Numbered from the stretch's first letter, positions 29,889 through 56,337 are shown. The stretch: DNA of 64,000 nt from Vicinamibacteria bacterium (GCA_036556965.1 DATBIO010000272.1:2355-66354), one strand, 5' to 3'. Numbers and translations are program-made. Notes: a model not told the origin generated them from the sequence alone.

Positions 29889-30377
29889 TCAGGGGCGGGG
29901 GGCCCCGGCGGCGGCGATGCACTCGATCTCCACGCGCGCGCCGAGGACGAGGCCCCCGACGCCCAGGGCGCTGCGCGCCGGCTTGTTGCGCGGGAAGTAC
30001 TCGCGGTAGACGCGGTTCATGGCCTCCCACTCCGCGACGTCCGCCAGCATGACCGTGCACTTCACCACGCGCTCCAGCGAGGACCCGTTCTCCTCGAGCA
30101 CGCGCTTGATGTTCTCGAGCGTCTGCCGCGTCTCGCCCTCGATGCCCCCCGGCGCCAGCTCCCGGCGGCCGGGCAGCACGCCCAGCGCCCCGGAGAGGAA
30201 GAGGAGATCGCCCACGCGGACGGCCTCGGAGTACGGCGGGTTGGCGGCCGCCCGCGCGGGGGACGTGAGGTAGGCCACCTCCGGCGGGGCGCGGCGCGAG
30301 GCACAGGCGACGGTGGCCATGAGCGCGGCCAGGGCCGCGAGCCGCCTGGGAGTCCCCCCGAGCACGGCCCCAAGCAT
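29889..30377 (-). CDS. RidA/YjgF (reactive-intermediate deaminase) family protein with N-terminal signal extension
   Basis: C-terminal RidA core (PPYSEAVRVGDLLFLSGALG ... VKCTVMLAD..EWEAMNRVY). ~45-aa hydrophobic N-terminal extension. Start ATG 30377 (alternative ATG 30401). Confidence 0.7.
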   Translation of the reverse strand: MLGAVLGGTPRRLAALAALMATVACASRRAPPEVAYLTSPARAAANPPYSEAVRVGDLLFLSGALGVLPGRRELAPGGIEGETRQTLENIKRVLEENGSSLERVVKCTVMLADVAEWEAMNRVYREYFPRNKPARSALGVGGLVLGARVEIECIAAAGAPRP

Positions 30378-30417
30378 ATCGAAGGCGGGGCGGTGGGGCA
30401 CGGGCGCCGCGACGTCC

Positions 30418-31296
30418 TCAGCGCCGGCGCCGCCACCGCGCGAGGACGCGCCGGAAGTCGTCGGGGAGCGGGCTCTCCACGCGCACGACGCCCTCGCCCC
30501 CCGGCGGGCGGAAGCCGAGGACGGCCGCGTGCAGCATCTGGCGCGGGGCGGCCGGGCCCTTCTCCGGACCGTAGACCGCGTCGCCGACCACGGGCAGCCC
30601 CACGTGCGCGAGGTGCACGCGGATCTGGTGCTGGCGCCCGGTGGCGAGCTGGACCTCGAGCAGGGCGCCCTCCGCGAACCGCTCGCGCACGCGCCAGCGC
30701 GTGAGGGCGGCGTGGGCGCCCTCGCCCGCGCGGGCCACCCGGCGGCGGCCGGCCACGTAGGCGTCGGCCAGGGGCAGGTCCACCTCGCCCTGCTCCGCGC
30801 GTGGACGGCCGGAGACGAGGGCCAGGTAGCGGCGCTCGACGCGGTGCGCGCGGAAGAGGGACTGCAGGTGGGCGCGCGCCTCCCGGCTCAGGGCCAGGGC
30901 CAGGGCGCCCGAGGTGTCACGGTCCAGGCGGTGGACGGGATGGACGTAGGCGCGCCGCGGCCGCAGCCGCCGCACGTACTCCTGCACCCGCCGCAGGACG
31001 GTGTCCTCGTCGCGGGCCTCCGGCGAGGAGGCCACGCTGAGCAGGCCCGCCGGCTTGTCCACCACCAGGACGTGGCCGTCCTCGTACAGCACGGGAAGGG
31101 AGAGCCGCGCGCGCGGCAGGGCGCGGCGGTTGGGGTCCCAGGCCACGGCCGCGGAGGCGGCCACGGAGAGCCCGGGCTCCCGGGCCAGGCGGCCGTCCAC
31201 CGTCACCTGGCCCTTCTCGATGACCTCGCGCGCCTTGCGCCGCGAGAGCCCGGGATGGCGGCGCACGAGGAGGACGTCGAGGCGCGTGGCGCTCAC
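30418..31296 (-). CDS. RluA-family pseudouridine synthase
   Basis: GTG 31296 overlapping the upstream TGA. S4-like N-terminus then catalytic HRLDRDTSG motif. The 597-aa six-frame ORF is over-extended. Confidence 0.8.
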   Translation of the reverse strand: MSATRLDVLLVRRHPGLSRRKAREVIEKGQVTVDGRLAREPGLSVAASAAVAWDPNRRALPRARLSLPVLYEDGHVLVVDKPAGLLSVASSPEARDEDTVLRRVQEYVRRLRPRRAYVHPVHRLDRDTSGALALALSREARAHLQSLFRAHRVERRYLALVSGRPRAEQGEVDLPLADAYVAGRRRVARAGEGAHAALTRWRVRERFAEGALLEVQLATGRQHQIRVHLAHVGLPVVGDAVYGPEKGPAAPRQMLHAAVLGFRPPGGEGVVRVESPLPDDFRRVLARWRRRR

Positions 31297-32174
31297 TCGC
31301 GGAGGCCGCGCGCGTCGTCCCACGCCGCCGGGTCCTGGCCGAAGTACTCGGCCAGCACGGCGTACACCTCGGCATGGTGGCGCCGCAGGGGCTGGGGGAC
31401 CTCGAAGAACGCCTCCACCGCCACCGGCCAGAACTCCACGGGATCGTCCGCGCCGTAGTCGTCGATGACCGACCGGCCGCGCTCGAGCCGCTTCATCTCG
31501 CGGGCGGCCAGGGCGACCCATTCCTCCGCGCGCGCCGCCGTCATCCCCGCGGGTATCCCGTCGAAGTGGGTGGCCTCCACGTCCAGGAGGTGGGCGAACT
31601 CGTGATAGCCGACGTGGTAGGCGTCGTCGGAGGTCTCGAAGCTCTCCTCGAGGGCGGGCAGCGACAGGATGAGGGTGCCCCAGCCATGCGCCTGGCCGGC
31701 CAGCTCCGCGTTCTCGAACGAGTAGTCCCGGTCGAAGTCCTGGGGGTAGAGCAGGACCTCCGTCACCTGCGTCCAGCGGAAGGCGGGCCAGGCCAGGCTC
31801 AGGCTGGCCGCGGAGGCGGCCACCAGCAGGCGATGCTCGTCGGTGACCTCGACCTCGACGCCGGTCACGGGCGTGTCGGCCAGGAACGACCGCACGGCCT
31901 GCTCGAAGAGGGCGCGCTCGCGCGCGGGCAGGCGCTCGTAGTGGTCGGACGCCTCCAGCAGGAACCGGCGCCAGCGCTCGGGGAAGGGGGCGGCGAGCAG
32001 GGCCTCGCGGCGCCGCTCGCGGCGCCGGGCGTGGGCCGCCGCTCCCCCCGCGGCCGCCCCCGCGGCCAGGCTTCCCGCCCACGCTCCCGGCGTCCCGAAG
32101 AGGAGGGCGCCCACCGCGGCCCCGGCGAGAGCGCCGAGGGCGGTCGTGCCCGCCAGCCGTGCGGCCTCGCTCAC
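31293..32174 (-). CDS. MtfA-like (peptidase M90) zinc-dependent peptidase
   Basis: GTG 32174 overlapping the upstream stop (GTGA). HEFAH zinc motif (YHVGYHEFAHLLD). N-terminal TM/hydrophobic segment. Confidence 0.7.
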   Translation of the reverse strand: MSEAARLAGTTALGALAGAAVGALLFGTPGAWAGSLAAGAAAGGAAAHARRRERRREALLAAPFPERWRRFLLEASDHYERLPARERALFEQAVRSFLADTPVTGVEVEVTDEHRLLVAASAASLSLAWPAFRWTQVTEVLLYPQDFDRDYSFENAELAGQAHGWGTLILSLPALEESFETSDDAYHVGYHEFAHLLDVEATHFDGIPAGMTAARAEEWVALAAREMKRLERGRSVIDDYGADDPVEFWPVAVEAFFEVPQPLRRHHAEVYAVLAEYFGQDPAAWDDARGLRE

Positions 32175-33127
32175 GCGTGCCGGGCGAGGAGCCGCCGCAG
32201 CACCGCGGCATCCACGTTGCCGCCCGTCACCACCACCGCCGTGGGACCGTCCGCGCGCACGCGCCCCATCGCCACCGCGGCGGCGGCGACGGCGCCCGCG
32301 CCCTCGGCCACCACCTGGTCGTGGGCGAGCAGGGCCACCATCGCACGCTCGAGCTCGTCCTCCGGCACCACCTCCATCGCGTCGAACAGGTGGCGGTGCC
32401 GGAAGGCGATCTCGCCGATGCCGCCGGCCAGGCCGTCGGCCAGGGTGGGCGCGGCCGCGTACTCGGTGAGGGCGCGGCCCTGCCGGACCGACTCGCGCAG
32501 CGCGGGCGAGGCCTCCGGCTGCACGGCCACCACCCGCACGCGGGGGGCGCGCGCCTTGAGCACGGCGGCCATGCCGCTGATGAGGCCGCCCCCGCCGACC
32601 GGTACCACGACGGCGGCCAGGTCCGGCCGGGCCTCCAGCAGCTCCAGGGCCACCGTGCCCTGGCCGGCGGCGACGCGGTCGTCCTCGAAGGCGTGGGCCA
32701 TGACCGCGCCCGTCTCCTCCGCGAACCGCTCCGCGGCGGCGTGCGCGTCGTCGTAGGTCTCGCCCCCCTCGTGCACGGTCACGGGGAACGCGCGCAGCTT
32801 GTCGACCTTCGCCCGCGGCGCGCTGCGCGGCACGAAGAGCGTCGCCCGCACGCCGCCCACGGTGGCGGCGGCGAAGGCGACGCCCAGGGCGTGGTTCCCC
32901 GCGGAGGCGGCCACCACCCCGCGGCGGCGCTGCGCCTCGGGCAGCGTGGCCAGCAGGTGCGTGGCCCCGCGTACCTTGAACGAGCCCGTGGGCTGCCAGC
33001 ACTCGAGCTTCAGCAGGACCTCGCCCGCGCCGCGCAGGGCGAAGGACGGGCGCAGCGGCGTGGGGGGAAGGTGCGGCGCCACCACCGCGCGGGCGGCCTC
33101 CACCGCCTCCACGGAGAGCACGCTCAT
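32171..33127 (-). CDS. PLP-dependent threonine/serine dehydratase (threonine ammonia-lyase / serine racemase family, fold type II)
   Basis: ATG 33127 overlapping the upstream stop (ATGA). PLP-lysine motif SFKVRGA. Glycine-rich loop VPVGGGGLISG. 318 aa. Confidence 0.85.
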   Translation of the reverse strand: MSVLSVEAVEAARAVVAPHLPPTPLRPSFALRGAGEVLLKLECWQPTGSFKVRGATHLLATLPEAQRRRGVVAASAGNHALGVAFAAATVGGVRATLFVPRSAPRAKVDKLRAFPVTVHEGGETYDDAHAAAERFAEETGAVMAHAFEDDRVAAGQGTVALELLEARPDLAAVVVPVGGGGLISGMAAVLKARAPRVRVVAVQPEASPALRESVRQGRALTEYAAAPTLADGLAGGIGEIAFRHRHLFDAMEVVPEDELERAMVALLAHDQVVAEGAGAVAAAAVAMGRVRADGPTAVVVTGGNVDAAVLRRLLARHA

Positions 33128-35955
33128 GGGCGCACGGGGCCGGCGGCCAGGAGGTCCAGCCGCGGCTCCCCGCAGCGGGCGGCGATGGCGGAGGCCGTGC
33201 GGTCGCGCAGGTCCACCAGCGCGTGCCAACCCTCGCCCTCCGGCCTCAGGGGGGGGCCGATCCAGAGGTGGATGTGGCCCCGGCGGGGGCGCCACCCGCC
33301 GCCGCGCAGCACGTGCCGCGTGCCCTGGAGGGCGAGGGGGAGGATGGCCACCTCCGCCGCCGCCGCGCTCTTGAAGGCGCCCAGGCGGAAGGGGCGCAGC
33401 CCCGTGGCCGGGGTGAAGGTGCCCTCGGGGAAGAAGAGCACGTTGCGCCCGGCGTGGAGCGCCTCGTCGATGGTGCGCGCGTCGTTGAGGCTCTGCTCCG
33501 TGTCCCAGCGGTCCACCGTCAGCTGCCGGGTGCGGCGCACGAAGGAGCCGACGAACGGCCAGCGCCGGACCTCGGCCTTGGCCACGAACGCGAAGTCGAG
33601 GGGAAGGAGCGCCATCAACGCGGGGACGTCGGCGTAGGAGGCGTGGTTCGAGCACAGCACCAGCGGTCCGGGCACGGCGAGGCGCTCGAGCCCCTCCACG
33701 GTCAGCCGCTGGCCCAGGAGCCGGAAGAACAGGCGCGCGCAGAAGCGTCCCGTGCGCGGGGCCCACGTGCGGGGCAGGACCACGGCCAGGACCCAGGCCA
33801 GCAGGCCCACCGCGGCCACGGCCGCGGCGGCGGCCCCCGCGTAGAGCAGGCCCGGCACGGCGCGCAGCCGCCGCCGCGCCTCGTTCACGGCCACGGCCGC
33901 GAAGAGCCGGGAGCGGGCGCCCGGGGAGAGGCCGCGCTCGGCGCCGAGCGCTCCGCGCAGGTAGAGGTCGCGCGTGGCCGCCCGCCGGACCTTGCCGCTC
34001 GGCGTCTTGGCCACCACGCCCGGCGCCACCAGCCGCACGTCGTCGGGGGGCACGCCGGTCACGCCGCCGACCCGCTCCACCACGGCCGCGGCCAGGCGCT
34101 CGCGCGCGGGCCCGTCCGTCTCGCGCGTCTCCGCCACCACCACCAGGGCCTCCGTGCCCAGCGCGGCCTGGGCCACGCCGAAGGCGGCCACGCAGCCCTT
34201 GCGGATGCCCTCCACGGAGGCCGCCGCCTCCTCGACCTCCTGCGGGACCAGGTTGCGTCCGCCCTTGATGATGAGGTCCTTGCGCCGGCCGGCGACGTGC
34301 ACCTCGCCGTCGGCCACGAAGGCGAGGTCGCCGCTGTCCAGCCAGCCGTCGCCCACCGCGACCTCCGCCGTCGCTTCCGCGTTCCGGTAGTAGCCGGCCA
34401 TGCTCGAGGGACCCCGGAAGACGAGCCGTCCCACCCGGCCGGAAGGGAGCTCCGCGCCGTCGTCGTCCAGGATGCGGACCTCGTGGCCGGGCAGCGCCGT
34501 GCCCACGGAGACGAAGCGCAGCGGCTCCTTCTCGCCCGGGGCGGGGGCCTCGACGCGCCCGTCCCCCGAGAACGGCTCGCGCGCGGCCAGCGTCACGCGT
34601 GGCCCGCGTCCGGGGGGCGGGAAGCAGAGCCCGACCGCGCTCTCCGCCAGCCCGTACACGGGCATGAAGGCCTCGCGGCGGAAGCCGTAGGGCGCGAACC
34701 GCCGCGCGAAGCGGTCCATGGTGTCGGGGCTCACCGGCTCGGCGCCGTTCAGCGCGCAGCGCCACGAGGAGAGGTCCAGCCCCTCCAGGGCGCGGTCGGG
34801 GATGCGGCGCACGCAGAGCTCGTAGGCGAAGTTGGGGGCGGCGGACATGGTGGCCTGGCGCTCGTGGATGGCCCACAGCCAGCGCTCGGGCCGCGCCAGG
34901 AAGGCCAGCGGCGACTGGATGTCGATGGGGACGCCGTGGACGATGCAGAACAGCCAGGAGCCGATGAGGCCCATGTCGTGGTAGAGCGGCAGCCAGGTCT
35001 GACCGACGTCGGTGGGCGCGAGACGCAGCCCGGCGGCGATGGCGCGGATGTTGGCGAGCAGGTTGTCGTGCGTGAGGAGCACGCCCTTGGGCATGCCCGT
35101 GCTCCCCGACGTGTACTGGATGAAGGCGGGATCCGCGCCGGCGCCCTCCGGCGCCGGCCAAGGGCCCCCCTCGGCGGCCAGCTCGTCGGCGGTGGCCACC
35201 GCGCGCAGGGAGGGCACGCGCGGACGCAGCAGGCCCACGACGGGGCGCGCGCGCTCGACCGTCACCAGGAGGCGGGCCTCGGCGTTGGCCAGGATGCCGG
35301 CCTGGCGGAGGGCGTACTCCTCCAGGCGGTCGAGACGCACGGGCGGGTACAGGGGGACGGGGATGGCCCCCAGGAGCAGGATGCCCTGGAAGGTGCGCAG
35401 GAAGTCCAGGCCGGTGGGGAGGACGAGGGCCACGGTGTCGCCCCTGCCCACCCCGCGCGCGCGGAGGCCGGCCGCCACCGAGGAGGCCTCGGCGAAGAGG
35501 CCGCCGTAGCTCAGCGCGACCTCGCGCCCGTCGTCCTCGCGGAGCCAGGCGTGCAGGCGCTCGGGCTCGGCCTGCGCCCGCAGCCAGAGCGCGCCGTGGA
35601 CGGTGGCGGCCTCCGGCAGCGGCGCCGGCTCGCGCGGCACCGCGGCCCTTCCCGGCCGCGGCCTCGCGGCGGCCTCGCCGGACTCCGCCTCCAGGAGGGC
35701 CCGGGCCAGGCCCTCCGGCGTGTCGATCTGCAGGCAGCGGTCGTCGAGACGGCGGCCGAAGGCGGCCTCCAGCCGGAGCATCAGCTCCACGCGCTCCAGG
35801 CTGCCCAGGCCGACCTGCCGCTCGAGGGAGGCCTGGGGGGCCACCGCCCCCGCCGCGCGCGCGCCACCGAGCTCCCGCGCGAGGTCGCGCAGGACCTCCA
35901 GCACCGTGCCCAGCGCCGCCTCGTAACTGGAGGTGGCCGCCGTCGTTTCGGTCAC
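33124..35955 (-). CDS. Tri-domain acyl carrier protein / fatty-acyl-AMP ligase (AMP-binding) / 1-acyl-sn-glycerol-3-phosphate acyltransferase (PlsC-type) fusion
   Basis: GTG 35955 with TACAGT 6 nt upstream (leaderless-type). Phosphopantetheine attachment motif GLGSLERVELM. Adenylation motifs YTSGSTGMPKGV and GD..RRKDLIIKGGRN. Acyltransferase H(X)4D motif CSNHASYADV and FPEGT. 943 aa. Confidence 0.8.
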   Translation of the reverse strand: MTETTAATSSYEAALGTVLEVLRDLARELGGARAAGAVAPQASLERQVGLGSLERVELMLRLEAAFGRRLDDRCLQIDTPEGLARALLEAESGEAAARPRPGRAAVPREPAPLPEAATVHGALWLRAQAEPERLHAWLREDDGREVALSYGGLFAEASSVAAGLRARGVGRGDTVALVLPTGLDFLRTFQGILLLGAIPVPLYPPVRLDRLEEYALRQAGILANAEARLLVTVERARPVVGLLRPRVPSLRAVATADELAAEGGPWPAPEGAGADPAFIQYTSGSTGMPKGVLLTHDNLLANIRAIAAGLRLAPTDVGQTWLPLYHDMGLIGSWLFCIVHGVPIDIQSPLAFLARPERWLWAIHERQATMSAAPNFAYELCVRRIPDRALEGLDLSSWRCALNGAEPVSPDTMDRFARRFAPYGFRREAFMPVYGLAESAVGLCFPPPGRGPRVTLAAREPFSGDGRVEAPAPGEKEPLRFVSVGTALPGHEVRILDDDGAELPSGRVGRLVFRGPSSMAGYYRNAEATAEVAVGDGWLDSGDLAFVADGEVHVAGRRKDLIIKGGRNLVPQEVEEAAASVEGIRKGCVAAFGVAQAALGTEALVVVAETRETDGPARERLAAAVVERVGGVTGVPPDDVRLVAPGVVAKTPSGKVRRAATRDLYLRGALGAERGLSPGARSRLFAAVAVNEARRRLRAVPGLLYAGAAAAAVAAVGLLAWVLAVVLPRTWAPRTGRFCARLFFRLLGQRLTVEGLERLAVPGPLVLCSNHASYADVPALMALLPLDFAFVAKAEVRRWPFVGSFVRRTRQLTVDRWDTEQSLNDARTIDEALHAGRNVLFFPEGTFTPATGLRPFRLGAFKSAAAAEVAILPLALQGTRHVLRGGGWRPRRGHIHLWIGPPLRPEGEGWHALVDLRDRTASAIAARCGEPRLDLLAAGPVRP

Positions 35956-36202
35956 CGCCGCACTGTACCAGCGTTGCCGTGCGCTATGCTGGGCCGTGCC
36001 GCGCGCCGTCACCATCCGGGAGATCGAGCGGATCTTCGCCGTCACCGACCCCCTGGGGATCCACCGCGAGGCCGTCGTCATCCCGCTGGCCATGCGCAGC
36101 CCGGGCGGAGTGCGGCGGCTGCCCGGGGGCAGGATCGAGATCGTGGTGGACGCGGAGGCCGACTTCGAGCAGTGGGTGGCCGGGCTGCCCGCCCGGATCG
36201 CC

Positions 36203-36754
36203 TCAGTCGGGTAGCGCGGCCAGGGCCCGCCGGTAGGCGAGGAGGTCGCCCTCGCTGAAGAGGGCGAAGCGGACGACGGACACGGTGGAGCCCGCCTGCA
36301 ACGCCGCGCGCACGGTGGCGAGGGCAACCGCGGCCGCCTCCTCCACGGGATAGCCGTAGGCGCCCGTGGAGATGCTGGGGAACGTGACCGAGGCCAGGCC
36401 GCGCGCGGCGGCCAGGTCCAGGCAGTTGCGATAGCAGCGGGCCAGGGTCTCCGCCTCGCCCGCCCCGCCGCCGCGCCACACCGGACCCACGGTGTGGATG
36501 ACGTGGCGGGCGGGGAGTTGCCCGCCCCCGCTCACGACGGCCTCGCCGGGAGGGAGGGGACCCTGGCGCTCCACGATGCGCCGGCACTCCTCCTTGATGG
36601 CGGGGCCCCCGGCCCGGTGGATGGCACCGTCAACGCCGCCCCCTCCCATGAGCCCGGAGTTGGCGGCATTGACGATGGCGTCGCTCGCTGCGCGCGTGAT
36701 GTCCTCACGCGCCAGCTCGATGCGACCCGAGCCGAATGTTCGGACGACCAGCTT
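36203..36754 (-). CDS. Macro-domain protein (MacroD/YmdB-like ADP-ribose processing); start codon unresolved
   Basis: Conserved macro motifs GRIELAREDITRAASDAIVNAANSGLMGGGGVDGAIHRAGG and C-terminal GxSVxFPxISTGxYGYP. The first in-frame ATG (36649) lies inside the conserved fold. There is no ATG/GTG/TTG between the in-frame HU stop (36860-62) and 36649. Confidence 0.6.
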   Translation of the reverse strand, partial: KLVVRTFGSGRIELAREDITRAASDAIVNAANSGLMGGGGVDGAIHRAGGPAIKEECRRIVERQGPLPPGEAVVSGGGQLPARHVIHTVGPVWRGGGAGEAETLARCYRNCLDLAAARGLASVTFPSISTGAYGYPVEEAAAVALATVRAALQAGSTVSVVRFALFSEGDLLAYRRALAALPD

Positions 36755-41068: not shown

Positions 41069-44000
41069 TCAGGCGCGCAGGCCGATGTCGTGCAGGATGC
41101 CCGCGCACTCGTCCGCGGGCAGCGGGCGCGAGAACAGGTAGCCCTGCATGAGGTCGCAGCCGTGGTTCTCGAGGAAGACGAGCTGCTCCTCCGTCTCCAC
41201 CCCTTCCGCCACCACGCGCAGCTTGAGGGTGTGGGCGAGGGCGATGACGGCGGTGGCGATGGCGGCGTCGTCGGGGTCGGTGGTGATGTCGCGCACGAAG
41301 GACTGGTCGATCTTCAGGGTGTCGATGGGCAGGCGCTTCAGGTAGCTGAGCGAGGAATAGCCGATGCCGAAGTCGTCGATGGTGATGCGCACGCCCAGCG
41401 CCTTCAGCTCGCGCAGGGTGTGCACGGTGGCCTCCGCGTTCTGCATGGCATTGGTCTCGGTGATCTCCAGGTCGAGGCAGGAGGCGGGCAGGCCCGTCTC
41501 GGCGAGGGCGCGGCGCACCTCGTTCACCAGCTCCGGCTGCTGGAACTGGCGCGCGGAGAGGTTCACCGCCACCACCAGGTCGGGGTGGCCGGCGGAGTGC
41601 CAGGCGCGGGCCTGGGCGCACGCCGTACGGAGGGTCCAGGCGGAGAGGGGGAGGATGAGGCCGGTGGCCTCGGCCACGGGGATGAACTCGCCGGGGGCCA
41701 CCAGGCCGCGCTCCGGGTGCTGCCAGCGCAGGAGCGCCTCCACCGCGTGCACGCGTCCCCGGCTGAGGTCGAGCATGGGCTGGTAGTAGATGACCAGCTC
41801 CTGGCGGGCGATGGCCTTGCGCAGCTCGCTCTCCACGGCCAGGCGCTCCACCGCGCTCGCGTTCATGGTGGGTGCGAAGAGCTGGTAGTTGTCGCGCCCC
41901 TGCTCCTTGGCCCGGTACATCGCGGTGTCGGCGTTCTTGACCAGGGTCTCGGCGTCGGCGCCGTCCTCCGGGTAGACGCTCACCCCCATGCTGGCGGAGA
42001 CGTAGAGCTCGCGCTCGTCCATCCGGAAGGGCTGGCGCAGCGCGTCCAGGATCTTCTCCGCCACCGTGGTCACGTCGATGGCGCGGGCGAGGCCGGGCAG
42101 CAGGAGGGTGAACTCGTCCCCGCCCAGGCGGGCCACGGTGTCGCCCTCCCGCACGCAGCCCAGCAGGCGCTCGGCCACCGCGCACAGCAGGCGGTCGCCC
42201 ACGGTGTGGCCGAGGGAGTCGTTGATGACCTTGAAGCGGTCGAGGTCCAGGAAGAGCACGGCCAGGCGGTGGCCCTGGCGATGGGCCTGGGCCACCGCCA
42301 CCTGCAGGCGGTCCGTGAAGAGGAGCCGGTTGGGCAGCGCGGTGAGGGCGTCGTGGTAGGCGAGGGCCTTGATCTGCTCCTCGGCCCGCTTGCGCTCCGT
42401 GACGTCGAAGGCGAAGCCGAGGGCGGCGGAGCGGCCGCCGAACTCGATGCTGCCCGCGGAGAAGTCCACCCAGCGCAGGCCGCCGTCCTTGCGCACGATC
42501 CGGAACTCGTAGCGCGCGGGGACGGGCAGGCCGCGCTGGCGGGCCAGGCCGCGCTCCTTGACCATCTCCTGGAACTCGGCGTCGGCCAGCGACCAGAAGG
42601 GCCGGCGCGCCAGCTCCTCCACGCTGTAGCCGGTGAGGAGGGAGGCGGCGGCGTTGGCGTAGCGGAAGTCCTCGCCCTGGTAGATGAAGATGGCGCTGGG
42701 CGTGGTGTCGGCCAGGGTGCGGAAGCGCTCCTCGCTCTCGCGCAGCGCCTCCGTGGTCTGCTGGCGGACGAGGGCGTTGGCCACGTGCTGGGACACGTAG
42801 GCGATGAGGTCGCGGTCCCGCTCGGTGAAGCGCACGTCCTCGGAGTAGCTCTGCACCACCATGGCCCCGAAGGCGCGGCCGCCGCGGCGCAGGGGCGCCC
42901 CCAGCCAGTCCACGGACGGCTCCCCCAGGAGCTCGATCTCCCCCCGCGCCACCAGGGCGGCGAAGCGGTCCTGGTCCACCAGCCGGGGCTCCGCCTCGCG
43001 CAGCACCCACTCCGTGAGCCCCTTGCCGGGGGCGCGCGGCGCGGGGGGGGCGTCGTGCTCGTCCACGAAGTAGGGGAAGCGCACGGAGTGCCCGTCGTCG
43101 TCGAGGATGGCGATGTAGAAGTTGCGCGCGTACATCAGCTCGCCCACGATGCGGTGGATCTCCCGGTAGAACTCGGGCATGTCCTCGATCACCCCCGCGG
43201 AGTGCGCGATGCGGTAGAGGGCGGCCTGCAGCTTCTCCGCCCGCTTGCGGTCGGTGACGTCGCGGATGACCACCTGCACGGCGGTGGTGCCCTGGTAGGT
43301 GAAGGGCACCGCCCCCACCTCCACGTCCACGGCACGGCCGTCCCGGCGCACGAACTTCTCCTCCACGAAGGGCAGGGTCTCCCCCACCGCCAGCCGCTTC
43401 ATGCGCTCGATCACGGTGGGCAGCGAGTCGGGGTGGATGGCCTCCAGCACGGGGCGGCCCGCCATCTCCTGGGGAGAGCGGTAGCCCATGATGCGGGCGG
43501 CGGCGCTGTTGGCGAAGATCAGGCGCCCGTCGGCGTGCACGGCGATGCCGTCCGGGCTCAGCTCCACCAGCCGCCGGTAGCGCTCCTCGCTCTGGCGGAG
43601 CGCGTCCTCCGCCGCCCGGCGCTCGGTGACGTCGATGAAGACCCCGCGGAAGCCGCTGGCCTCGCCCTTCTCGTCGCGCATGAGGGCGATGGAGCCGCTG
43701 ACCCGGCGGCGGCTCCCGTCGCCGCGGATGACCTCGAACTCCGCGCCGCGCACGGGGTCGCCGGTGGTGAAGACCTGGTTGAAGAGGCGGTAGACGATGC
43801 GCGCGTTCTCCTCGTCCGTGTACTGCCGGTTGTTCATGCCCAGCAGCTGCGGGGCCGGGTAGCCGAGGTTGCGGGCCAGGGCGTCGTTCAGGAAGACGAG
43901 GTTCCCCGCCAGGTCCACCTCGTAGTAGCCCTCGTCGATGGAGCCGAGGATGGCGCGGTACTTCTCCTCGCTCCGCCGCAGCGCCTCCAGGGCGTGCACG

Positions 44001-45124
44001 CGCTCGGTGACGTCGCGCGCCACCACCAGGGCGGCCTTGTGCCCCCCGAACTCCAGGACGTGGGAGCTGACCTCGACGTCGATGATGCCTCCGTCCTTGC
44101 GGCGGTGGCGCCAGCCCCCGCCGTACTCGAGGTCCGCGCGGCCGCGGTCGATGCGCGCGAGCAGGCGCGGGACCTCGTCCAGGGGACGGATCTCGGTGAT
44201 GCGCAGGCGCAGGAACTCGTCGCGGCTGTAGCCGTAGCGGGCCACCGCCGCCTCGTTGACCTCCAGGAAGTGCAGGGAGCTCAGGTCGTAGACCCACATG
44301 GGGTCGGGGTGGCTGGCGAACAGCAGGCGGAAGCTGGCCCCGCTCTCGAAGAGGGCCCGCTCCGCGCGCCGCTCCTGGGTGACGTCGCGGAAGCTCCAGA
44401 CCCGGCCCACGGCCCGCCCCTCCAGCCACTGCGGGCGCGAGTAGCGCTCGAAGACGCGGCCGTCCTTGAACTCCAGCACGTCGAAGCTCTCCGCCTCGGG
44501 CAGCGCGTAGAGCTCCTTGACCTTGCGCAGGAAGGCGTCCGGCTCGCGGAGCTGGTCACGCACGTAGCTCAGGGCGCGCTCGTCGTCGCGGGTCTCGATC
44601 ACCTCCGGCGGGATCCGCCACATCTCCGCGAAGCGCAGGTTGCTGGAGACGATGCGCCCGTCGGTGTCGATGACGAGGATGCCGTCGGCGGTGGCCTCCA
44701 GCGTGGACTGGAGGAGGGAGACCGCGCGCTGGAGCGCGACCTGGGTGCGCTCGCGGTCGGTCACGTCGTGGAGGGTGGAGTGCAGCAGCAGCTGCCCGTT
44801 CAGCTCCAGCGGCCCGGAGTGCATCTCCACGTGGCGGATCTCGCCGGAAGCCAGGCGGTGGGGAAGGGCCACCGCGCTCCGGGGCTGGGTGGCAGCGCGG
44901 GCCAGGGCCTCGCGGAGCTCGTGGGCCGGCGCGGTGGCGAGGTCACCCAGGGTCTTCCGGCGGAGCTCCTCCCGCGAGTAGCCGTAGAAGCGGCAGGCGG
45001 CCGGGTTGGCCTCCACGATGCCGCCCGAGAGCGGATCGATGAGGAGCTGCACGGCGAGGTCCTGGTGGAACACCTGCCGCTGGAGGTCGCCCACCGCCGA
45101 ACGTCCTTGACCTGCTTCAGCCAA
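41069..45124 (-). CDS. Multi-PAS/GAF sensor diguanylate cyclase / phosphodiesterase (GGDEF + EAL)
   Basis: Several PAS repeats. GGDEF site RLGGDEF. EAL domain with EALLRW and DDFGIGYSSLSYL motifs. 1351 aa from the first ATG (start not resolved; internal GTG alternatives). Confidence 0.85.
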   Translation of the reverse strand: MAEAGQGRSAVGDLQRQVFHQDLAVQLLIDPLSGGIVEANPAACRFYGYSREELRRKTLGDLATAPAHELREALARAATQPRSAVALPHRLASGEIRHVEMHSGPLELNGQLLLHSTLHDVTDRERTQVALQRAVSLLQSTLEATADGILVIDTDGRIVSSNLRFAEMWRIPPEVIETRDDERALSYVRDQLREPDAFLRKVKELYALPEAESFDVLEFKDGRVFERYSRPQWLEGRAVGRVWSFRDVTQERRAERALFESGASFRLLFASHPDPMWVYDLSSLHFLEVNEAAVARYGYSRDEFLRLRITEIRPLDEVPRLLARIDRGRADLEYGGGWRHRRKDGGIIDVEVSSHVLEFGGHKAALVVARDVTERVHALEALRRSEEKYRAILGSIDEGYYEVDLAGNLVFLNDALARNLGYPAPQLLGMNNRQYTDEENARIVYRLFNQVFTTGDPVRGAEFEVIRGDGSRRRVSGSIALMRDEKGEASGFRGVFIDVTERRAAEDALRQSEERYRRLVELSPDGIAVHADGRLIFANSAAARIMGYRSPQEMAGRPVLEAIHPDSLPTVIERMKRLAVGETLPFVEEKFVRRDGRAVDVEVGAVPFTYQGTTAVQVVIRDVTDRKRAEKLQAALYRIAHSAGVIEDMPEFYREIHRIVGELMYARNFYIAILDDDGHSVRFPYFVDEHDAPPAPRAPGKGLTEWVLREAEPRLVDQDRFAALVARGEIELLGEPSVDWLGAPLRRGGRAFGAMVVQSYSEDVRFTERDRDLIAYVSQHVANALVRQQTTEALRESEERFRTLADTTPSAIFIYQGEDFRYANAAASLLTGYSVEELARRPFWSLADAEFQEMVKERGLARQRGLPVPARYEFRIVRKDGGLRWVDFSAGSIEFGGRSAALGFAFDVTERKRAEEQIKALAYHDALTALPNRLLFTDRLQVAVAQAHRQGHRLAVLFLDLDRFKVINDSLGHTVGDRLLCAVAERLLGCVREGDTVARLGGDEFTLLLPGLARAIDVTTVAEKILDALRQPFRMDERELYVSASMGVSVYPEDGADAETLVKNADTAMYRAKEQGRDNYQLFAPTMNASAVERLAVESELRKAIARQELVIYYQPMLDLSRGRVHAVEALLRWQHPERGLVAPGEFIPVAEATGLILPLSAWTLRTACAQARAWHSAGHPDLVVAVNLSARQFQQPELVNEVRRALAETGLPASCLDLEITETNAMQNAEATVHTLRELKALGVRITIDDFGIGYSSLSYLKRLPIDTLKIDQSFVRDITTDPDDAAIATAVIALAHTLKLRVVAEGVETEEQLVFLENHGCDLMQGYLFSRPLPADECAGILHDIGLRA

Positions 45125-45307
45125 CTTCGACCGACCCCCTCCGTGGCGCGTGGCCCGCGGTCTTTGACGACGGCCGGGCTAGTGTACGCGGCCCCGCGCG
45201 GGCTCGCCAGGCGCGGCCGTGGGCGCCCGCACACGCCCGGCCCGCCGGCCGCCCACGGAACTCCGCCTTCCCCGCGTGAAACCGGCCCCCCGGGCCCGGC
45301 AGCGGTC

Positions 45308-45336
45308 TTGCTGTAGGCGGCGCCGACGGGCAGACT
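45308..45336 (+). promoter_or_regulatory. Candidate sigma-70-type promoter for the alpha-2-macroglobulin/pbpC operon (TTGCTG-N17-CAGACT), followed by GGAGGA RBS at 45349-45354
   Basis: Seen directly; hexamers only partially match consensus, so weak. Confidence 0.25.
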
Positions 45337-45357
45337 CTGCGCCGTCTCGGAGGATCG

Positions 45358-48300
45358 ATGGAACGGGGAACGCGCAGCCGCACCCTGGGTGTCTTCCTCG
45401 CGTTGCTGGCCGTGCCCGCGGCCGCCGCCGAGCTCCAGGTCGTGCAGTCCGGCCCGCAGGGGGAGGTTGCCCAGCTCGGGGAGGCGGCCGAGGTGCGGGT
45501 GGTCTTCTCCGAGCCCATGGTGGCGCTGGGCCGCATCCCGGACCGGGTGGAGGCGCCCTTCTTCTCCATTGCGCCGTCCGTCCCCGGAACCCTCCGCTGG
45601 TCCGGCACGCGCACGCTCATCTTCACGCCCGACGCGCCGGATGAGCTCCCCTACGCGACCCGCTTCCGCGTGACCGTGGAGGCGGGGGCGACCGCCGTCT
45701 CCGGCCGCCGCCTGGCCGCGCCCCACGCCTTCGAGTTCACCACTCCCACGGTCCGCCTCCTCCGCGTGAACTGGCAGCGCGAGGGTGGGCGGTTCGACGC
45801 CCCCCTCTTCCTGTACCTCCGCTTCAACCAGCCCGTCTCGCGACAGTCCCTCCTCCCGCACCTCTCCTTCGCCTACGCGCCCCATGACTGGACCCCGCCC
45901 GAGCTGCCCGCGGAGGCGTCGGAGCGCGACCCGCGGGCGGCCTCGGACTTCGCGGCCAAGGTGGCGCGCACGCAGGCGGCGGTGAAGAGCCGCGCCGCGG
46001 TGGCGGTGGCGGCCGCCCCGAGCTGGGACCGCCAGACGTTCCCCCCCGCCCCCGACCTGGTGGTCCTGGAGACGAGGGTGGCGCCTCCCCCCGACGCCTG
46101 GATCGCGGTCACGGTGGGGCCCCGCGTGCCGTCCGCGCAGGGCGCGGAGACCCCGGGCCAGCCGCAGTCCTACACCGTGAAGCTGGAGCCGACGTTCTTC
46201 GTGCAGGGCTTCCGCTGCCGCGAGGCCTGCGACCCCGAGGGCTGGAACCCGCTCCGTCTTCGCGGACGCGTGGTACCGCGCGTGCTCGGGAGCACGCTGG
46301 CGGTGGCCGACGTCACCGCGTCTCCGGCCACGCCGCTGGAGCCCGCCGCGCGCTCCCCGGAGCACGAGGAGGAGCCCGGCTACGAGTACCCCACGGAGGG
46401 CGACGAGTACGACGCGGCCACCGAGGTGGCGCTGGAGGACGTCGGCTACCGCCTCGCGCCGGCACGGCGCTACCGGGTCACCGTCGGCCGCGGCCTCGTG
46501 GCCAAGGACGGCCAGACCCTGGGCTACACCTGGGCGGGCACGGTGGACAACTGGCACCAGCGGGCGTTCACCAGCTTCGGCGGGGGCCACGGGGTGTGGG
46601 AGTCGTCGGGGGGCTCGAAGCTGCCCTTCTACGCGCGGAACCTGCGCGCGGTGACGCAGTGGCTCCGGCCCCTGTCCCTGGACGAGCTGATGCCGACGAC
46701 GCGCCGGCTGCAGGAGAAGTACTTCCGCCTCGCCCCCGAGGAGGCGCCCGTGGAGCGGGCCCTCGGCGGCCGGCCCGACACCATCGAGTCGCACGGCCTG
46801 GAGCTGCGGCCGTTCCTGTCCCCCCAGAACACGGGCCTGCTCTGGGCGGCCCTGCGCGACGGCGATCCCATCCCCCGCGCGCACGAGTCGGACACCGCGC
46901 GCCCGCCGAGGTCGACGCTGGTCCAGGTCACCAACCTGGGGCTGAGCGTCAAGGACAGCCCGCACGACACGCTGGTGCTGGTCACGCGGCTGGACGACGG
47001 CCAGCCGGTGGCGGGGGCGAAGGTCGCCATCCGCGACCTGGACAACGCGGTGCGCTTCACCGCGACCACGGACGCCAGCGGCGTGGCCACCATGAAGGGC
47101 ACCGACCTTCGCATCCCCGACGAGTGGTGGCGGTTCCGCTTCATGGTCACCGCCGAGAAGGACGGCGACGCCGCCTTCGTGGGCTCCGACTGGTACGAGG
47201 GGATCGAGCCGTGGTCCTTCTCCGTCAACTACGACCTCGGGGAGTCGCGCCCGCTGCTGCGCGGGTCCGTCTTCGCCGACCGCGGCGTCTACAAGCTCGG
47301 GGAGGAGGTCCACCTCAAGGCCATCCTGCGCACCGACACCGCGGAGGGCGTGGCCCTGCTCCCCGCGGGCACCGCGGTGGAGGTCGTGGTCAGGGACACG
47401 CACGGAGACGAGGTCGTGAAGACCACCCTCGCCCTCTCCGAGTGGAGCAGCGCGGAGTGGGCGTTCACCCTCCCGCGCGCCGCCCCCCTCGGGTACTACG
47501 ACGTGGCGGCGACGGTGAAGGGTCAGGAGCGCTCCGCGCGCGGCTCCTTCCTCGTGGCCGCCTACCGGCGTCCCGAGTTCCGCGTCGAGGTGGGCCTGGC
47601 CGGGGAGTCCAGCCTGGCCGGGGTGTCCCTGGCGGGAGTGGTGGACGGCCGCTACCTCTTCGGCGGCGCCATGGCGGGCGCGCCCGTGCGCTGGACGTAC
47701 GCCCGGAGCCCGTCCTACACGGTGCCGGCGGCCATCTCGGACCGCTACCCCGCGGAACGCTGGGCCTTCCTCGACCACGAGCGCCCCACCCCCCCTTCCG
47801 GCACCATCGAGACGAAGGAGGAGGAGCTGGACGGGCAGGGCCGGCTGTCCCTGACCCTCGAGACGTCGAAGGACGCGGGCGTCCCCTACGAGTACACGCT
47901 GGAGGGCGAGGTCACCGACGTCTCCCGGCAGCGGCAGGCGGGACGCAACTCCTTCCGTGTGGATCCCGCGCCCTGGTACGTGGGGCTGAAGCGCCCGCCC
48001 TACTTCGCCGACGCCGCCCTCGGCCTCGACACCGAGGTGGTGGCGGTCTCCCTCGAGGGGAGCCCCGTACCCGGCGTGGAGGTCACCCTGAGCCTGACCC
48101 AGGTCCAATGGCACAGCGTGCGCCGCGCGGAAGGGGGCGGCTTCTACACCTGGGAGACGGAGCGCCGCGAGGTGGCGGCGGGCGAGTTCCAGGTGGCCAC
48201 CGCGGAGACGCCGCAGGCGCTGCACGTGCCCATGCCCGCGGGCGGCTACTTCGTGCTGCGCGCGGTGGCGCGGGACGCCGAGGGCCGCTCCACCACCACC

Positions 48301-56268: not shown

Positions 56269-56337
56269 GAGGAGCCGGATTCTATCGGAGCGGGCGAGGC
56301 CTGGGGCGCGCCTCGCCAAGCCGGTCGCCGGCCGTGC

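Follow-up and report, generated by a model that had tools for sequence, protein, structure and literature searches.

The window analysed here, 64,000 nucleotides of a Vicinamibacteria bacterium (GCA_036556965.1 DATBIO010000272.1:2355-66354), carries on its minus strand a long open reading frame that raises a simple question: can one polypeptide activate a fatty acid, load it onto its own carrier and transfer it to a lipid? A first-pass annotation had proposed that an acyl carrier domain, a fatty-acyl-AMP ligase and a PlsC-type acyltransferase follow each other in the product. Pfam returned the three domains in this order, PP-binding at residues 22-87, AMP-binding at 130-523 and Acyltransferase (PF01553) at 750-876, and the motifs quoted in that annotation were all located in the translation. 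Coordinates of the features are collected in Table 1.

Table 1. Features of the fusion gene and its downstream neighbour (positions counted from the first nucleotide of the window).
Feature	Residues	Position	Strand	Basis or remark
Whole gene, ACP–FAAL–membrane helices–LPLAT		33124..35955	minus	943 aa, GTG start, TGA stop; ORF list and translation
Acyl carrier (PP-binding) domain	1-90	35686..35955	minus	Pfam PF00550, family profile, hhalign, AF2 helices
Ser52 codon (AGC), predicted phosphopantetheine attachment site in GLGSLE	52	35800..35802	minus	Conservation and ACP alignment
Flexible Ala/Pro/Arg-rich linker	91-118	35602..35685	minus	Low conservation, gaps; pLDDT 56-71, no secondary structure
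Fatty acyl-AMP ligase (FAAL) domain	119-672	33940..35601	minus	Pfam, NCBIfam, PDB alignments, Foldseek
FAAL-specific helix (SPLAFLARP)	348-356	34888..34914	minus	Aligns with EcFAAL R251-P259; predicted block of the canonical CoA pocket
FAAL-specific insertion region	~449-482	34510..34611	minus	Gapless versus EcFAAL and olefin-synthase FAAL
Lys655 codon, adenylation lysine (A10 motif PSGK)	655	33991..33993	minus	Invariant in 84-member alignment
Membrane-association segment	678-746	33718..33924	minus	Long helix, hydrophobic core 699-732, then amphipathic basic helix
PlsC-type lysophospholipid acyltransferase (LPLAT) domain	747-930	33166..33717	minus	Pfam PF01553, PDB 5kym, NCBIfam
H(X)4D catalytic motif	His771...Asp776	33628..33645	minus	Aligns with NHQSLMD of 5kym
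FPEGT (LPLAT motif III)	842-846	33418..33432	minus	Aligns with FPEGT of 5kym
PALP gene (PLP-dependent, Thr/Ser-dehydratase-like)		32171..33127	minus	Downstream neighbour; its ATG overlaps the TGA of the fusion gene (ATGA)

The reading frame runs without interruption from a GTG at 35955 to a TGA at 33124-33126. Full-length homologues are colinear with its product, and its GC3 of 0.95 is typical of coding frames in the window; this is a real, intact gene. That it might be an annotation artefact, long spurious ORFs being common in DNA of 75% GC, or that translation might start downstream of the first 90 residues, the GTG having no obvious Shine-Dalgarno sequence, is hardly credible given the coding-type GC3 and the conservation of the N-terminal domain down to 35% identity. 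A longer JGI call (P0001, ATG at 36015, 963 aa) was rejected: its 20 extra residues are absent from all homologues, and the ORF would overlap a conserved small gene on the opposite strand. Since the homologues begin at the equivalent of 35955, with the pattern M-[ST]-E..., and the extension from ATG 36015 is unmatched, the N-terminal 90 aa are, on this comparative evidence, translated, as the first-pass annotation had assumed; an untranslated N-terminus is effectively refuted by homologue starts and protein-level conservation. The PALP gene that follows is a neighbour, and a functional link to the fusion enzyme is not implied. It is also found in two homologue loci (L001 and L003) and is missing in a third (L002), where a Peptidase_M90 gene comes directly after the homologue.

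The carrier domain scores weakly in Pfam (23.7 bits for a gathering cut-off of 20.8, E 5.7e-5), yet it is firmly supported, because three other lines of evidence agree. A profile built from 42 family N-termini matched 150 solved ACPs in the PDB, with a best E of 1.7e-12. Aligned by hhalign to E. coli AcpP, the family profile gave a probability of 96.6% and placed Ser52 on the phosphopantetheine serine; in the solved ACPs, likewise, Ser52 aligns with the Ser of DSL. Finally, AlphaFold folds residues 3-90 into a helical bundle (helices 3-30, 32-36, 52-66, 72-76 and 80-90) with Ser52 opening helix II. The motif GLGSLERVELM lies at residues 49-59, and the family consensus at this place is the canonical DLGLDSL. 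Conservation was measured on an alignment of 84 diverse family members, 35-73% identical. Ser52 is invariant in these as well as in 121 close homologues, and around it G49, L53, E57, R61 and E63 are at least 90% conserved. By these comparisons residues 1-90 are an acyl carrier domain, with phosphopantetheinylation predicted at Ser52. Routine annotation (precomputed PF00550) misses the domain in about half of the close homologues. Two representatives, P0222 and P0224, are without it; unless these are truncated gene calls, some relatives are evidently served by a carrier in trans.

The ligase domain matches AMP-binding with 226 bits (E 1e-66) and the NCBIfam FAAL model PRK09192 with 440 bits. 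It contains YTSGSTGMPKGV at residues 281-292 and GD...GRRKDLIIKGGRN at residues 542-568. The core motifs of the ANL superfamily, A3 (YTSGSTGxPKG, 281-291), A5 (434-438), the A8 hinge (556-568) and the A10 lysine K655, are invariant or nearly so in the 84 members, and D543 is invariant. The hallmarks that define FAALs, including the FAAL-specific helix, have been described (PMC8460268). AF2 places a helix (349-354) at the position of the FAAL-specific helix, in which P349, F352 and P356 are invariant. The FAALs of the PDB (7r7e, 3pbk, 3kxw and FadD32) align contiguously with the domain, whereas the alignments of FACL structures, FadD13 among them, fall into two pieces with a break at ~411-483. 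Foldseek gave a TM of 0.91 for the ligase fold against EcFAAL, of which residues W224, P226, M231, F279 and P107 correspond to W321, P323, M328, F376 and P205 here, all conserved. The ligase is thus, by sequence and predicted fold, of the FAAL type with all the published hallmarks, and FAAL biochemistry would predict that it rejects CoA.

Between ligase and transferase lies the only strong hydrophobic peak of the protein (Kyte-Doolittle 2.59), within a segment that AF2 models as helices 678-726 and 729-746. It is seen in most family members, and occupies the place of the N-terminal ~51 residues of T. maritima PlsC. The hydrophobic stretch, ~26-34 residues long, could make a true transmembrane pass, which would part the transferase from the ATP-dependent ligase across the membrane; monotopic anchoring seems more likely. 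The transferase itself is recognised by PF01553 with 88 bits (E 5e-25), and its sole PDB sequence match is the same T. maritima PlsC, 5kym (E 9e-19). The catalytic stretch CSNHASYADV is present at residues 768-777, where all 84 members share N770 and H771, with at least 90% conservation of D776. Within FPEGT, E844 is invariant and F842 and G845 are at least 90% conserved, and R816 (motif II) and P873 (motif IV) of LPLATs are conserved too. The domain stays below the curated cut-offs of all NCBIfam models, with 88.9 bits for AGP_acyltrn (cut-off 103), 33.5 for E. coli PlsC (cut-off 501), and 78 and 73 for the OlsA models (cut-off 300); therefore, the sequence does not assign its acceptor. It nevertheless resembles ordinary O-acyltransferases such as PlsC and OlsA. 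The first-pass annotation had left the choice between a lysolipid and an amino acceptor: the former is favoured, and nothing in a transferase of this kind supports the latter.

How does the protein compare with known systems? In Aas, as here, one polypeptide joins an adenylate-forming, fatty-acid-activating domain to a PF01553 H(X)4D acyltransferase. Aas works through an ACP thioester on the cytoplasmic side of the inner membrane, converting free fatty acid, ATP and lysolipid into diacyl lipid (PMC11416262), and the same intermediate, location and net reaction are proposed for the present enzyme. The contrast with Aas drawn in the first-pass annotation was correct: the order is reversed, the transferase of Aas spanning 1-203 and its synthase 204-719, and the carrier is built in, whereas Aas uses a free ACP. 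Moreover, the ligase is of the FAAL type (440 bits with PRK09192, against 151-163 bits for the whole protein on the LplT-Aas models, whose cut-offs exceed 1200), the strong hydrophobic segment has no counterpart in Aas, which lacks a predicted TM helix, and an lplT partner is absent. A rearranged Aas, or an Aas orthologue, was rejected because of the FAAL-type ligase and of a transferase that reaches only 20 bits with the model of E. coli Aas (PRK08043, cut-off 886). These comparisons indicate an enzyme that is Aas-like by its predicted function and was fused independently, by convergence. With the FAALs (EcFAAL 3PBK, L. pneumophila 3KXW, olefin-synthase 7R7E, mycobacterial FadD32/FadD28) it shares the ANL motifs, the insertion, the helix, the bulky pocket residues and the prolines. 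In known FAALs, however, the acyl group goes to a PKS/NRPS ACP, either downstream or stand-alone; in the present protein the carrier precedes the ligase, and it is a lipid acyltransferase that would receive the chain. With the PlsC/AGPAT-type LPLATs (5KYM, OlsA) it has in common H(X)4D, FPEGT, the equivalents of motifs II and IV and, where PlsC has its N-terminal motif, a hydrophobic and amphipathic helix pair before the domain; in contrast to PlsC and OlsA, the transferase is fused behind a ligase and a carrier, and it is an equivalog of neither.

The ACP–FAAL–LPLAT architecture was found in at least 10 phyla, including cultured Methylocystis, Thiocystis, Mesorhizobium and Photobacterium. To call it unusual, as had been done, was an overstatement, since the family is large and the fusion of a FAAL with a lysophospholipid acyltransferase had already been mentioned, without functional study, in two FAAL surveys (PMC8460268, PMC12820801). 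We found in the literature neither a functional study of, nor biochemical data on, any family member; this large, multi-phylum family appears never to have been tested in the laboratory. The architecture is kept whole across many phyla while neighbours vary, and no conserved operon partner was detected among 85 loci, which fits an enzyme carrying all its own parts. In 11 of the 85 loci (alpha-, beta- and gamma-proteobacteria, Desulfobacterota), an MFS transporter gene directly adjoins the fusion gene, recalling the lplT–aas pairing; this transporter is ATG22-like and does not match the LplT models. No MFS gene lies near the fusion gene within the window. Downstream of the homologue at one Gemmatimonadales locus come genes for a radical-SAM protein and a glycosyltransferase.

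From these features, the enzyme is probably a self-contained, membrane-associated machine that takes fatty acid to lipid via its own carrier. A PPTase would convert the carrier to its holo form at Ser52, and the FAAL domain would use ATP to adenylate a free long-chain fatty acid, a chemistry that we infer from FAAL biochemistry, the identity of the domain being established. With the CoA pocket blocked, the acyl group would pass only to the thiol of a carrier-bound phosphopantetheine, that of the in-cis carrier on its ~28-residue flexible linker. The acyl-S-carrier would then swing to the C-terminal transferase, held on the cytoplasmic membrane face by the hydrophobic and amphipathic helix pair, where His771/Asp776 would catalyse O-acyl transfer to a lyso-glycerolipid (lysophosphatidic acid or lysophospholipid). 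As a net result, a membrane lipid would be re-acylated or remodelled from free fatty acid, by a route insulated from coenzyme A (beta-oxidation) and from the housekeeping ACP pool. The single-protein pipeline advanced in the first-pass annotation is thus the best-supported mechanism, because the attachment and catalytic residues Ser52, Lys655 (the carrier serine and adenylation lysine whose conservation was in question) and His771 are invariant and because a CoA-rejecting FAAL needs a carrier-bound thiol; it is deduced from sequence. AlphaFold gave the full protein a pLDDT of 89.2 and a pTM of 0.74 with the ACP–FAAL linker disordered, and the reach of Ser52 to both active sites in cis is argued from linker length alone. 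There are precedents in which a carrier-bound acyl group feeds a PlsC-type domain: in Aas, the acyl-ACP made by the enzyme's own synthase domain feeds a PlsC-type domain (PMC11416262), and in the myxobacterial PUFA synthase Pfa3 a C-terminal AGPAT domain, a PlsC-type domain in cis, is thought to off-load the carrier-bound acyl chain into phosphatidic acid (PMC4882568). In Pfa3, a PKS-like synthase builds the chain de novo, whereas the FAAL of the present enzyme would activate a pre-formed free fatty acid.

The same chemistry might serve a specialised product, a particular fatty acid (of unusual chain, hydroxy or branched) being placed on a non-phospholipid acceptor, for instance by O-acylation of lyso-ornithine lipid, as OlsA does, or of another amino- or glycolipid. 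The classical role of FAALs is to channel fatty acids towards specialised lipids (PMC8460268), the OlsA scores come near that of the AGPAT domain model, and the radical-SAM and glycosyltransferase genes of the Gemmatimonadales locus point the same way. We nevertheless find this unlikely: neither a biosynthetic cluster nor an olsB-like gene is conserved nearby among the 85 loci, the OlsA scores are far under their cut-off, and a spread across phyla with ordinary PE/PG membranes better fits a general function. Much less likely again is a vestigial or regulatory carrier, the ligase loading free ACP in the manner of Aas, or the transferase drawing on acyl-ACP or acyl-CoA of the general pool. The low Pfam score, the close homologues lacking a PF00550 call and the two representatives without the domain would agree with it, but an invariant Ser52 in a conserved motif is unexpected in a decayed domain, and the canonical consensus, confident helical bundle and ACP profile match (E 1e-12) also speak against it.

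Slightly less credit still is given to an ElbD-type ether-lipid enzyme, or to what metagenome screens count as an ElbD homologue. ElbD of Myxococcus xanthus (Q1DC43) does unite an acyl-activating domain, an ACP and an AGPAT-like acyltransferase in one chain, and reductase-less ElbD-like proteins are reported from other phyla (PMC9131029); BLAST screens have reported ElbD homologues in Acidobacteria and Proteobacteria (PMC11868695). What sets ElbD apart, by its description, is an N-terminal fatty-acyl reductase, an elb operon and purification as a soluble protein, whereas the reductase domain (NAD_binding_4/FAR) is absent by Pfam both here and in ten variant members, elbB/elbE-like neighbours were not found at this locus or at the compared homologue loci (the genes there include macro-domain, HU, PALP, M90 peptidase and RluD genes), and the present protein has a strong hydrophobic segment. 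The domain order of ElbD, reductase–ligase–ACP–AT, is also unlike the present one.

Free fatty acids are known to reach bacterial membranes through FadD (as acyl-CoA), through Aas/AasS (as free acyl-ACP) and through FakAB–PlsX/PlsY (as acyl-phosphate). To these, the carrier–ligase–acyltransferase family may add a fourth route, widespread and so far unrecognised, in which the enzyme's own carrier arm would lead from activation to lipid, kept separate from both CoA and the FAS ACP pool, with the ATG22-like MFS protein acting in some lineages as an LplT-like lysolipid flippase; we put this forward tentatively, as a proposal of somewhat less than even likelihood. If true, one polypeptide would take an acyl group all the way from ATP activation to membrane lipid.

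The gene was read from an open frame on the minus strand that runs from 36327 down to a TGA at 33124-33126, in a window whose G+C content is ~75% throughout. Started at GTG 35955, it encodes 943 residues with a GC3 of 0.95, a usual value for genuine genes in the window. An M-[ST]-E... start at this position is common to 120 close and 83 more distant homologues. The public JGI gene call (P0001) gives an identical protein of 963 aa, started at ATG 36015, whose 20 extra N-terminal residues have a counterpart in no homologue and run into a small plus-strand gene. The upstream starts, TTG 36327 and ATG 36015, were ruled out because the homologues begin at GTG 35955 and a conserved opposite-strand gene occupies the upstream region; a wrong start is effectively excluded. 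The shared start also settles the doubt, raised in the first-pass annotation, that the N-terminus might be untranslated, and all the motifs quoted there were found in the translation.

The small gene, whose 3′ end overlaps the stop of the macro-domain gene, has a GC3 of 0.93 and no Pfam match. Two other Vicinamibacteria loci encode a protein of ~60% identity in the corresponding place (L001, 7751-7972, and L002, 6702-6944). It leaves almost no promoter room for the tri-domain gene.

Table. Genes of the window mentioned in the text
Feature	Positions	Strand	Content
Tri-domain gene	33124-35955	-	carrier, FAAL, membrane helices, PlsC-type acyltransferase
Small gene	35996-36214	+	72 aa, in the 247 bp that separate the macro-domain and tri-domain genes
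Downstream run	29889-33127	-	PALP, Peptidase_M90, RluD-type pseudouridine synthase, RidA/L-PSP; tightly packed
Large signalling protein	41069-45178	-	1369-aa ORF; multiple PAS, GAF, GGDEF, EAL
Alpha-2-macroglobulin, then penicillin-binding protein	45280-53546	+	bacterial alpha-2-macroglobulin (1976-aa ORF); PBP1C type (Transgly + Transpeptidase + BiPBP_C)
Two-domain ORF	53497-56337	-	weak S1/P1-nuclease match (below Pfam cut-off); type I phosphodiesterase/nucleotide pyrophosphatase

The ligase domain matched Pfam AMP-binding over residues 130-523 (226 bits). The top curated models are FAAL families (PRK09192, 440 bits; PRK05850, 303 bits; FadD32, 276 bits), against at most 198 bits for general acyl-CoA ligase models and about 150-160 bits for LplT–Aas fusion models. 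Among solved structures, the best matches are the olefin-synthase FAAL (7R7E/F/G), EcFAAL (3PBK), the L. pneumophila FAAL (3KXW) and FadD32. These all align without interruption over residues 127-671; for acyl-CoA ligases, FadD13 among them, the alignment is in two pieces only, with a break at ~411-483 that coincides with the FAAL-specific insertion. FAAL hallmarks, as defined by Patil et al. 2021 (PMC8460268), were mapped through a residue-by-residue alignment with EcFAAL, the chain numbering of which is that of the paper minus one. The pocket-blocking residues W224, M231 and F279 of EcFAAL fall on W321, M328 and F376, P226 and P107 of the same set fall on P323 and P205, and the FAAL-specific helix R251-P259 corresponds to S348-P356, within which AlphaFold places a helix at 349-354. 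Conservation across the family is complete or at least 90% at every mapped position. With Foldseek, the model superposes on EcFAAL with a TM score of 0.91 (normalised to the target), and a search of the PDB recovers the FAAL part only. We conclude that the ligase is, as judged from sequence, a FAAL and not an acyl-CoA or Aas-type synthetase. By established FAAL biochemistry, it is predicted to make acyl-AMP and to need a carrier-bound thiol, not CoA.

For the carrier domain, Pfam PP-binding was matched at residues 22-87 with 23.7 bits, the gathering score being 20.8. As this match is a weak one and the finding depends on the domain, four further tests were applied. Residues 1-121, searched against the PDB as a single sequence, returned acyl carrier proteins only, with GLGSLE on GLDSLD. 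A profile built from 42 family N-termini matched 150 solved ACPs (best E 1.7e-12), and E. coli AcpP matched the family profile at 96.6% probability, in an alignment that puts Ser52 opposite the serine carrying phosphopantetheine. In an AlphaFold2 model built from an 84-sequence alignment, residues 3-90 form a helical bundle with Ser52 in the first turn of helix 52-66, and a disordered linker of ~28 residues follows (pLDDT 56-71). Ser52 is invariant in 121 close and 84 diverse sequences, and the motif consensus in the wider family is the canonical DLGLDSLxRxEL. The N-terminal PP-binding domain proposed at first pass is therefore backed by Pfam, the PDB searches, the AcpP comparison and the AlphaFold2 model.

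Among the closest homologues (best 120 of 8000), a precomputed PF00550 match exists for only 59, and P0001, identical to our protein, has none; the GLGSLE serine motif is kept in every one of these 120 (P0001-P0120) that includes the region. The domain is thus commonly missed, and it is systematically under-annotated among the homologues. Two cluster representatives, P0222 (860 aa) and P0224 (825 aa), have the FAAL and the acyltransferase without the N-terminal carrier, and are either natural variants using a carrier in trans or truncated gene calls.

The C-terminal part matches Pfam Acyltransferase (PF01553) at residues 750-876 with 88 bits. Residues 675-943 match one solved protein only, T. 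maritima PlsC (5KYM, E 9e-19), NHASYAD aligning on NHQSLMD and FPEGT on FPEGT. N770, H771 and E844 are invariant in the family, and conservation is at least 90% at D776, R816, F842, G845 and P873. Assignment of an acceptor from curated family models was dropped, since every score lies below its cut-off: 88.9 bits for AGP_acyltrn (cut-off 103), 78 and 73 bits for OlsA models (cut-off 300), 57 and 53 bits for the transferase part of LplT–Aas fusion models, 33.5 bits for the E. coli PlsC model and 20 bits for the E. coli Aas model. Two predicted helices, one of 49 residues (678-726) and one at 729-746, lie between ligase and transferase in the AlphaFold model. The hydrophobic peak at 699-732 is the only strong one in the protein, and a single segment of this kind is present in most of the family. 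The peak sits where ~51 N-terminal residues of T. maritima PlsC remain unmatched in the alignment. This N-terminal region was reportedly described by Robertson et al. in 2017 as a two-helix motif anchoring the enzyme in one leaflet. Because the segment occupies the place of that anchor, we infer a monotopic anchoring, in which both catalytic domains would be cytoplasmic.

A word-indexed search gave 8000 matches at E≤1e-10. The best 120 of these are all 908-972 aa long, with the layout of our protein and 60-100% identity; the few that are named come from Vicinamibacteria or Gemmatimonadales MAGs, and their labels are 'AMP-binding protein', '1-acyl-sn-glycerol-3-phosphate acyltransferase' or 'fatty-acyl-CoA synthase'. 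Among the matches listed, the closest are from Vicinamibacteria (73% identity to P0002, 63% to the homologue in locus L005). In an exhaustive search of 50%-identity representatives, the best 150 are mostly ~900-1000 aa, and most are matched over residues ~17-933 in one stretch at 35-55% identity. Ten length variants show the order PP-binding, AMP-binding, Acyltransferase in all but two, P0222 and P0224, which have no carrier. A scan of species-representative genomes yielded 599 matches, which came from general FAAL motifs and should therefore not all count as tri-domain proteins; 80 loci were kept, nearly all spanning residues ~18-933. They belong to Acidobacteriota, Gemmatimonadota, Nitrospirota, alpha-, beta- and gamma-proteobacteria, Myxococcota, Desulfobacterota, Planctomycetota, Actinomycetota, Bdellovibrionota-like organisms and Entotheonella. 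Among the carriers in culture are Methylocystis sp. JAN1, Thiocystis violacea DSM 208, Mesorhizobium delmotii, Photobacterium minamisatsumaniensis, Malikia granosa and Wenzhouxiangella.

The surroundings of the gene are syntenic with those in Vicinamibacteria, in the order DUF6788–DivIC–HU–Macro–(small gene, opposite strand)–tri-domain gene–[PALP]–Peptidase_M90–RluD. The ATG of PALP, a Thr/Ser-dehydratase-like gene, overlaps the TGA of the tri-domain gene (ATGA), and the peptidase is MtfA-like with a hydrophobic N-terminus. Peptidase_M90 lies downstream of the homologue in all 3 other Vicinamibacteria loci examined (L001-L003), directly after it in L002, where PALP is absent. As the packing is confined to Vicinamibacteria and PALP is missing in L002, both were rejected as functional partners and treated as lineage synteny. 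An all-against-all clustering of ORFs across 85 loci, aimed at revealing the acceptor, found no universal neighbour or conserved operon partner. The commonest neighbour, directly beside the gene in 11 of the 85 loci, is an ATG22-like MFS transporter (PF11700), found in alpha-, beta- and gamma-proteobacteria and Desulfobacterota (L027, L033, L035, L044, L046, L047, L051, L056, L062, L068 and L078); none is encoded within the window. The arrangement recalls the lplT-aas pairing, but the transporter was ruled out as an LplT, having no match to the NCBIfam LplT models. The homologues in five cultured genomes each have different, unrelated neighbours. In a Gemmatimonadales MAG (L004, 9971-12211), genes for a radical-SAM protein and a GT1 glycosyltransferase come after the homologue, a setting that may point to a specialised lipid.

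Elsewhere the window carries ordinary chromosomal genes, among them those for a PAS–GGDEF–EAL protein, for an alpha-2-macroglobulin with PBP1C, the classic A2M–PbpC pair, and for peptidases. In L001, a multi-PAS protein similar to the large signalling protein is encoded upstream of the homologue. The pairing of S1/P1-nuclease and type I phosphodiesterase in one ORF is unusual.

At the domain level the protein belongs to the FAAL, ACP and LPLAT families, and these identities are near certain. It falls outside the Aas and ElbD families (ElbD being compared by domain content and context), because their defining features were tested and were not found in it. Most likely, it nevertheless works like Aas. 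Ser52 would be phosphopantetheinylated; the FAAL would adenylate a free long-chain fatty acid and thioesterify it onto the in-cis carrier; the acyl-carrier would then dock on the transferase at the membrane surface, where His771 and Asp776 would catalyse acylation of a lyso-glycerolipid at its free hydroxyl. According to Rock and colleagues, ACP is said to behave as a tightly bound subunit of Aas, so that a covalent fusion would be a natural variant. Aas performs the same reaction, but with free ACP (PMC11416262). A second precedent is the AGPAT domain of myxobacterial Pfa3, which is proposed to off-load a carrier-bound acyl chain in cis into phosphatidic acid (PMC4882568). Carrier-mediated channelling is likely, the acceptor is the weakest link, and the account as a whole seems to us reasonably probable.

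A specialised-lipid role, with for instance a lyso-ornithine lipid as acceptor, would agree with the OlsA-like scores and with the usual job of FAALs, but no gene cluster was found, and we regard it as rather unlikely. We give little credence to a decorative carrier domain, which is hard to reconcile with the invariant serine, and an ElbD-like ether-lipid role is very improbable, as the reductase domain and the elb context are missing and a hydrophobic segment is present. This segment may be a true transmembrane pass, which would be a problem for the Aas-like mechanism.

The first-pass annotation had called the carrier, ligase and acyltransferase fusion unusual. The architecture is real, but it is common and catalogued, and is better described as uncharacterised than as rare. 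In a passage of PMC8460268, the fusion of a FAAL-like domain with a lysophospholipid acyltransferase is called a 'unique domain organization', and N-terminal fusions to FAALs are described as first seen in plants; the survey passages on the fusion (PMC8460268, PMC12820801) make no mention of an N-terminal carrier. Full-text searches of the literature found no functional study of an ACP–FAAL–LPLAT protein. As the fusion is already catalogued, the advance would be functional rather than the discovery of an architecture, and the predicted function is readily testable.

The protein is a compact, testable model for the shuttling of a carrier domain from a soluble ligase to a membrane-surface transferase. 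Proteins of this kind bear on the reading of lipid genes in metagenomes, as their only annotation is 'AMP-binding protein' or 'AGPAT', and ether-lipid screens may score them as homologues of ElbD. If the mechanism holds, it would bear on why FAALs exist outside PKS/NRPS contexts and on the bypass of fatty-acid-synthesis inhibitors by exogenous fatty acids. Many environmental bacteria, including Acidobacteriota, Gemmatimonadota, Nitrospirota, many Proteobacteria and Desulfobacterota, would then bring fatty acids into membrane lipid, by recycling or scavenging, through a self-contained enzyme that is missing from current pathway maps.
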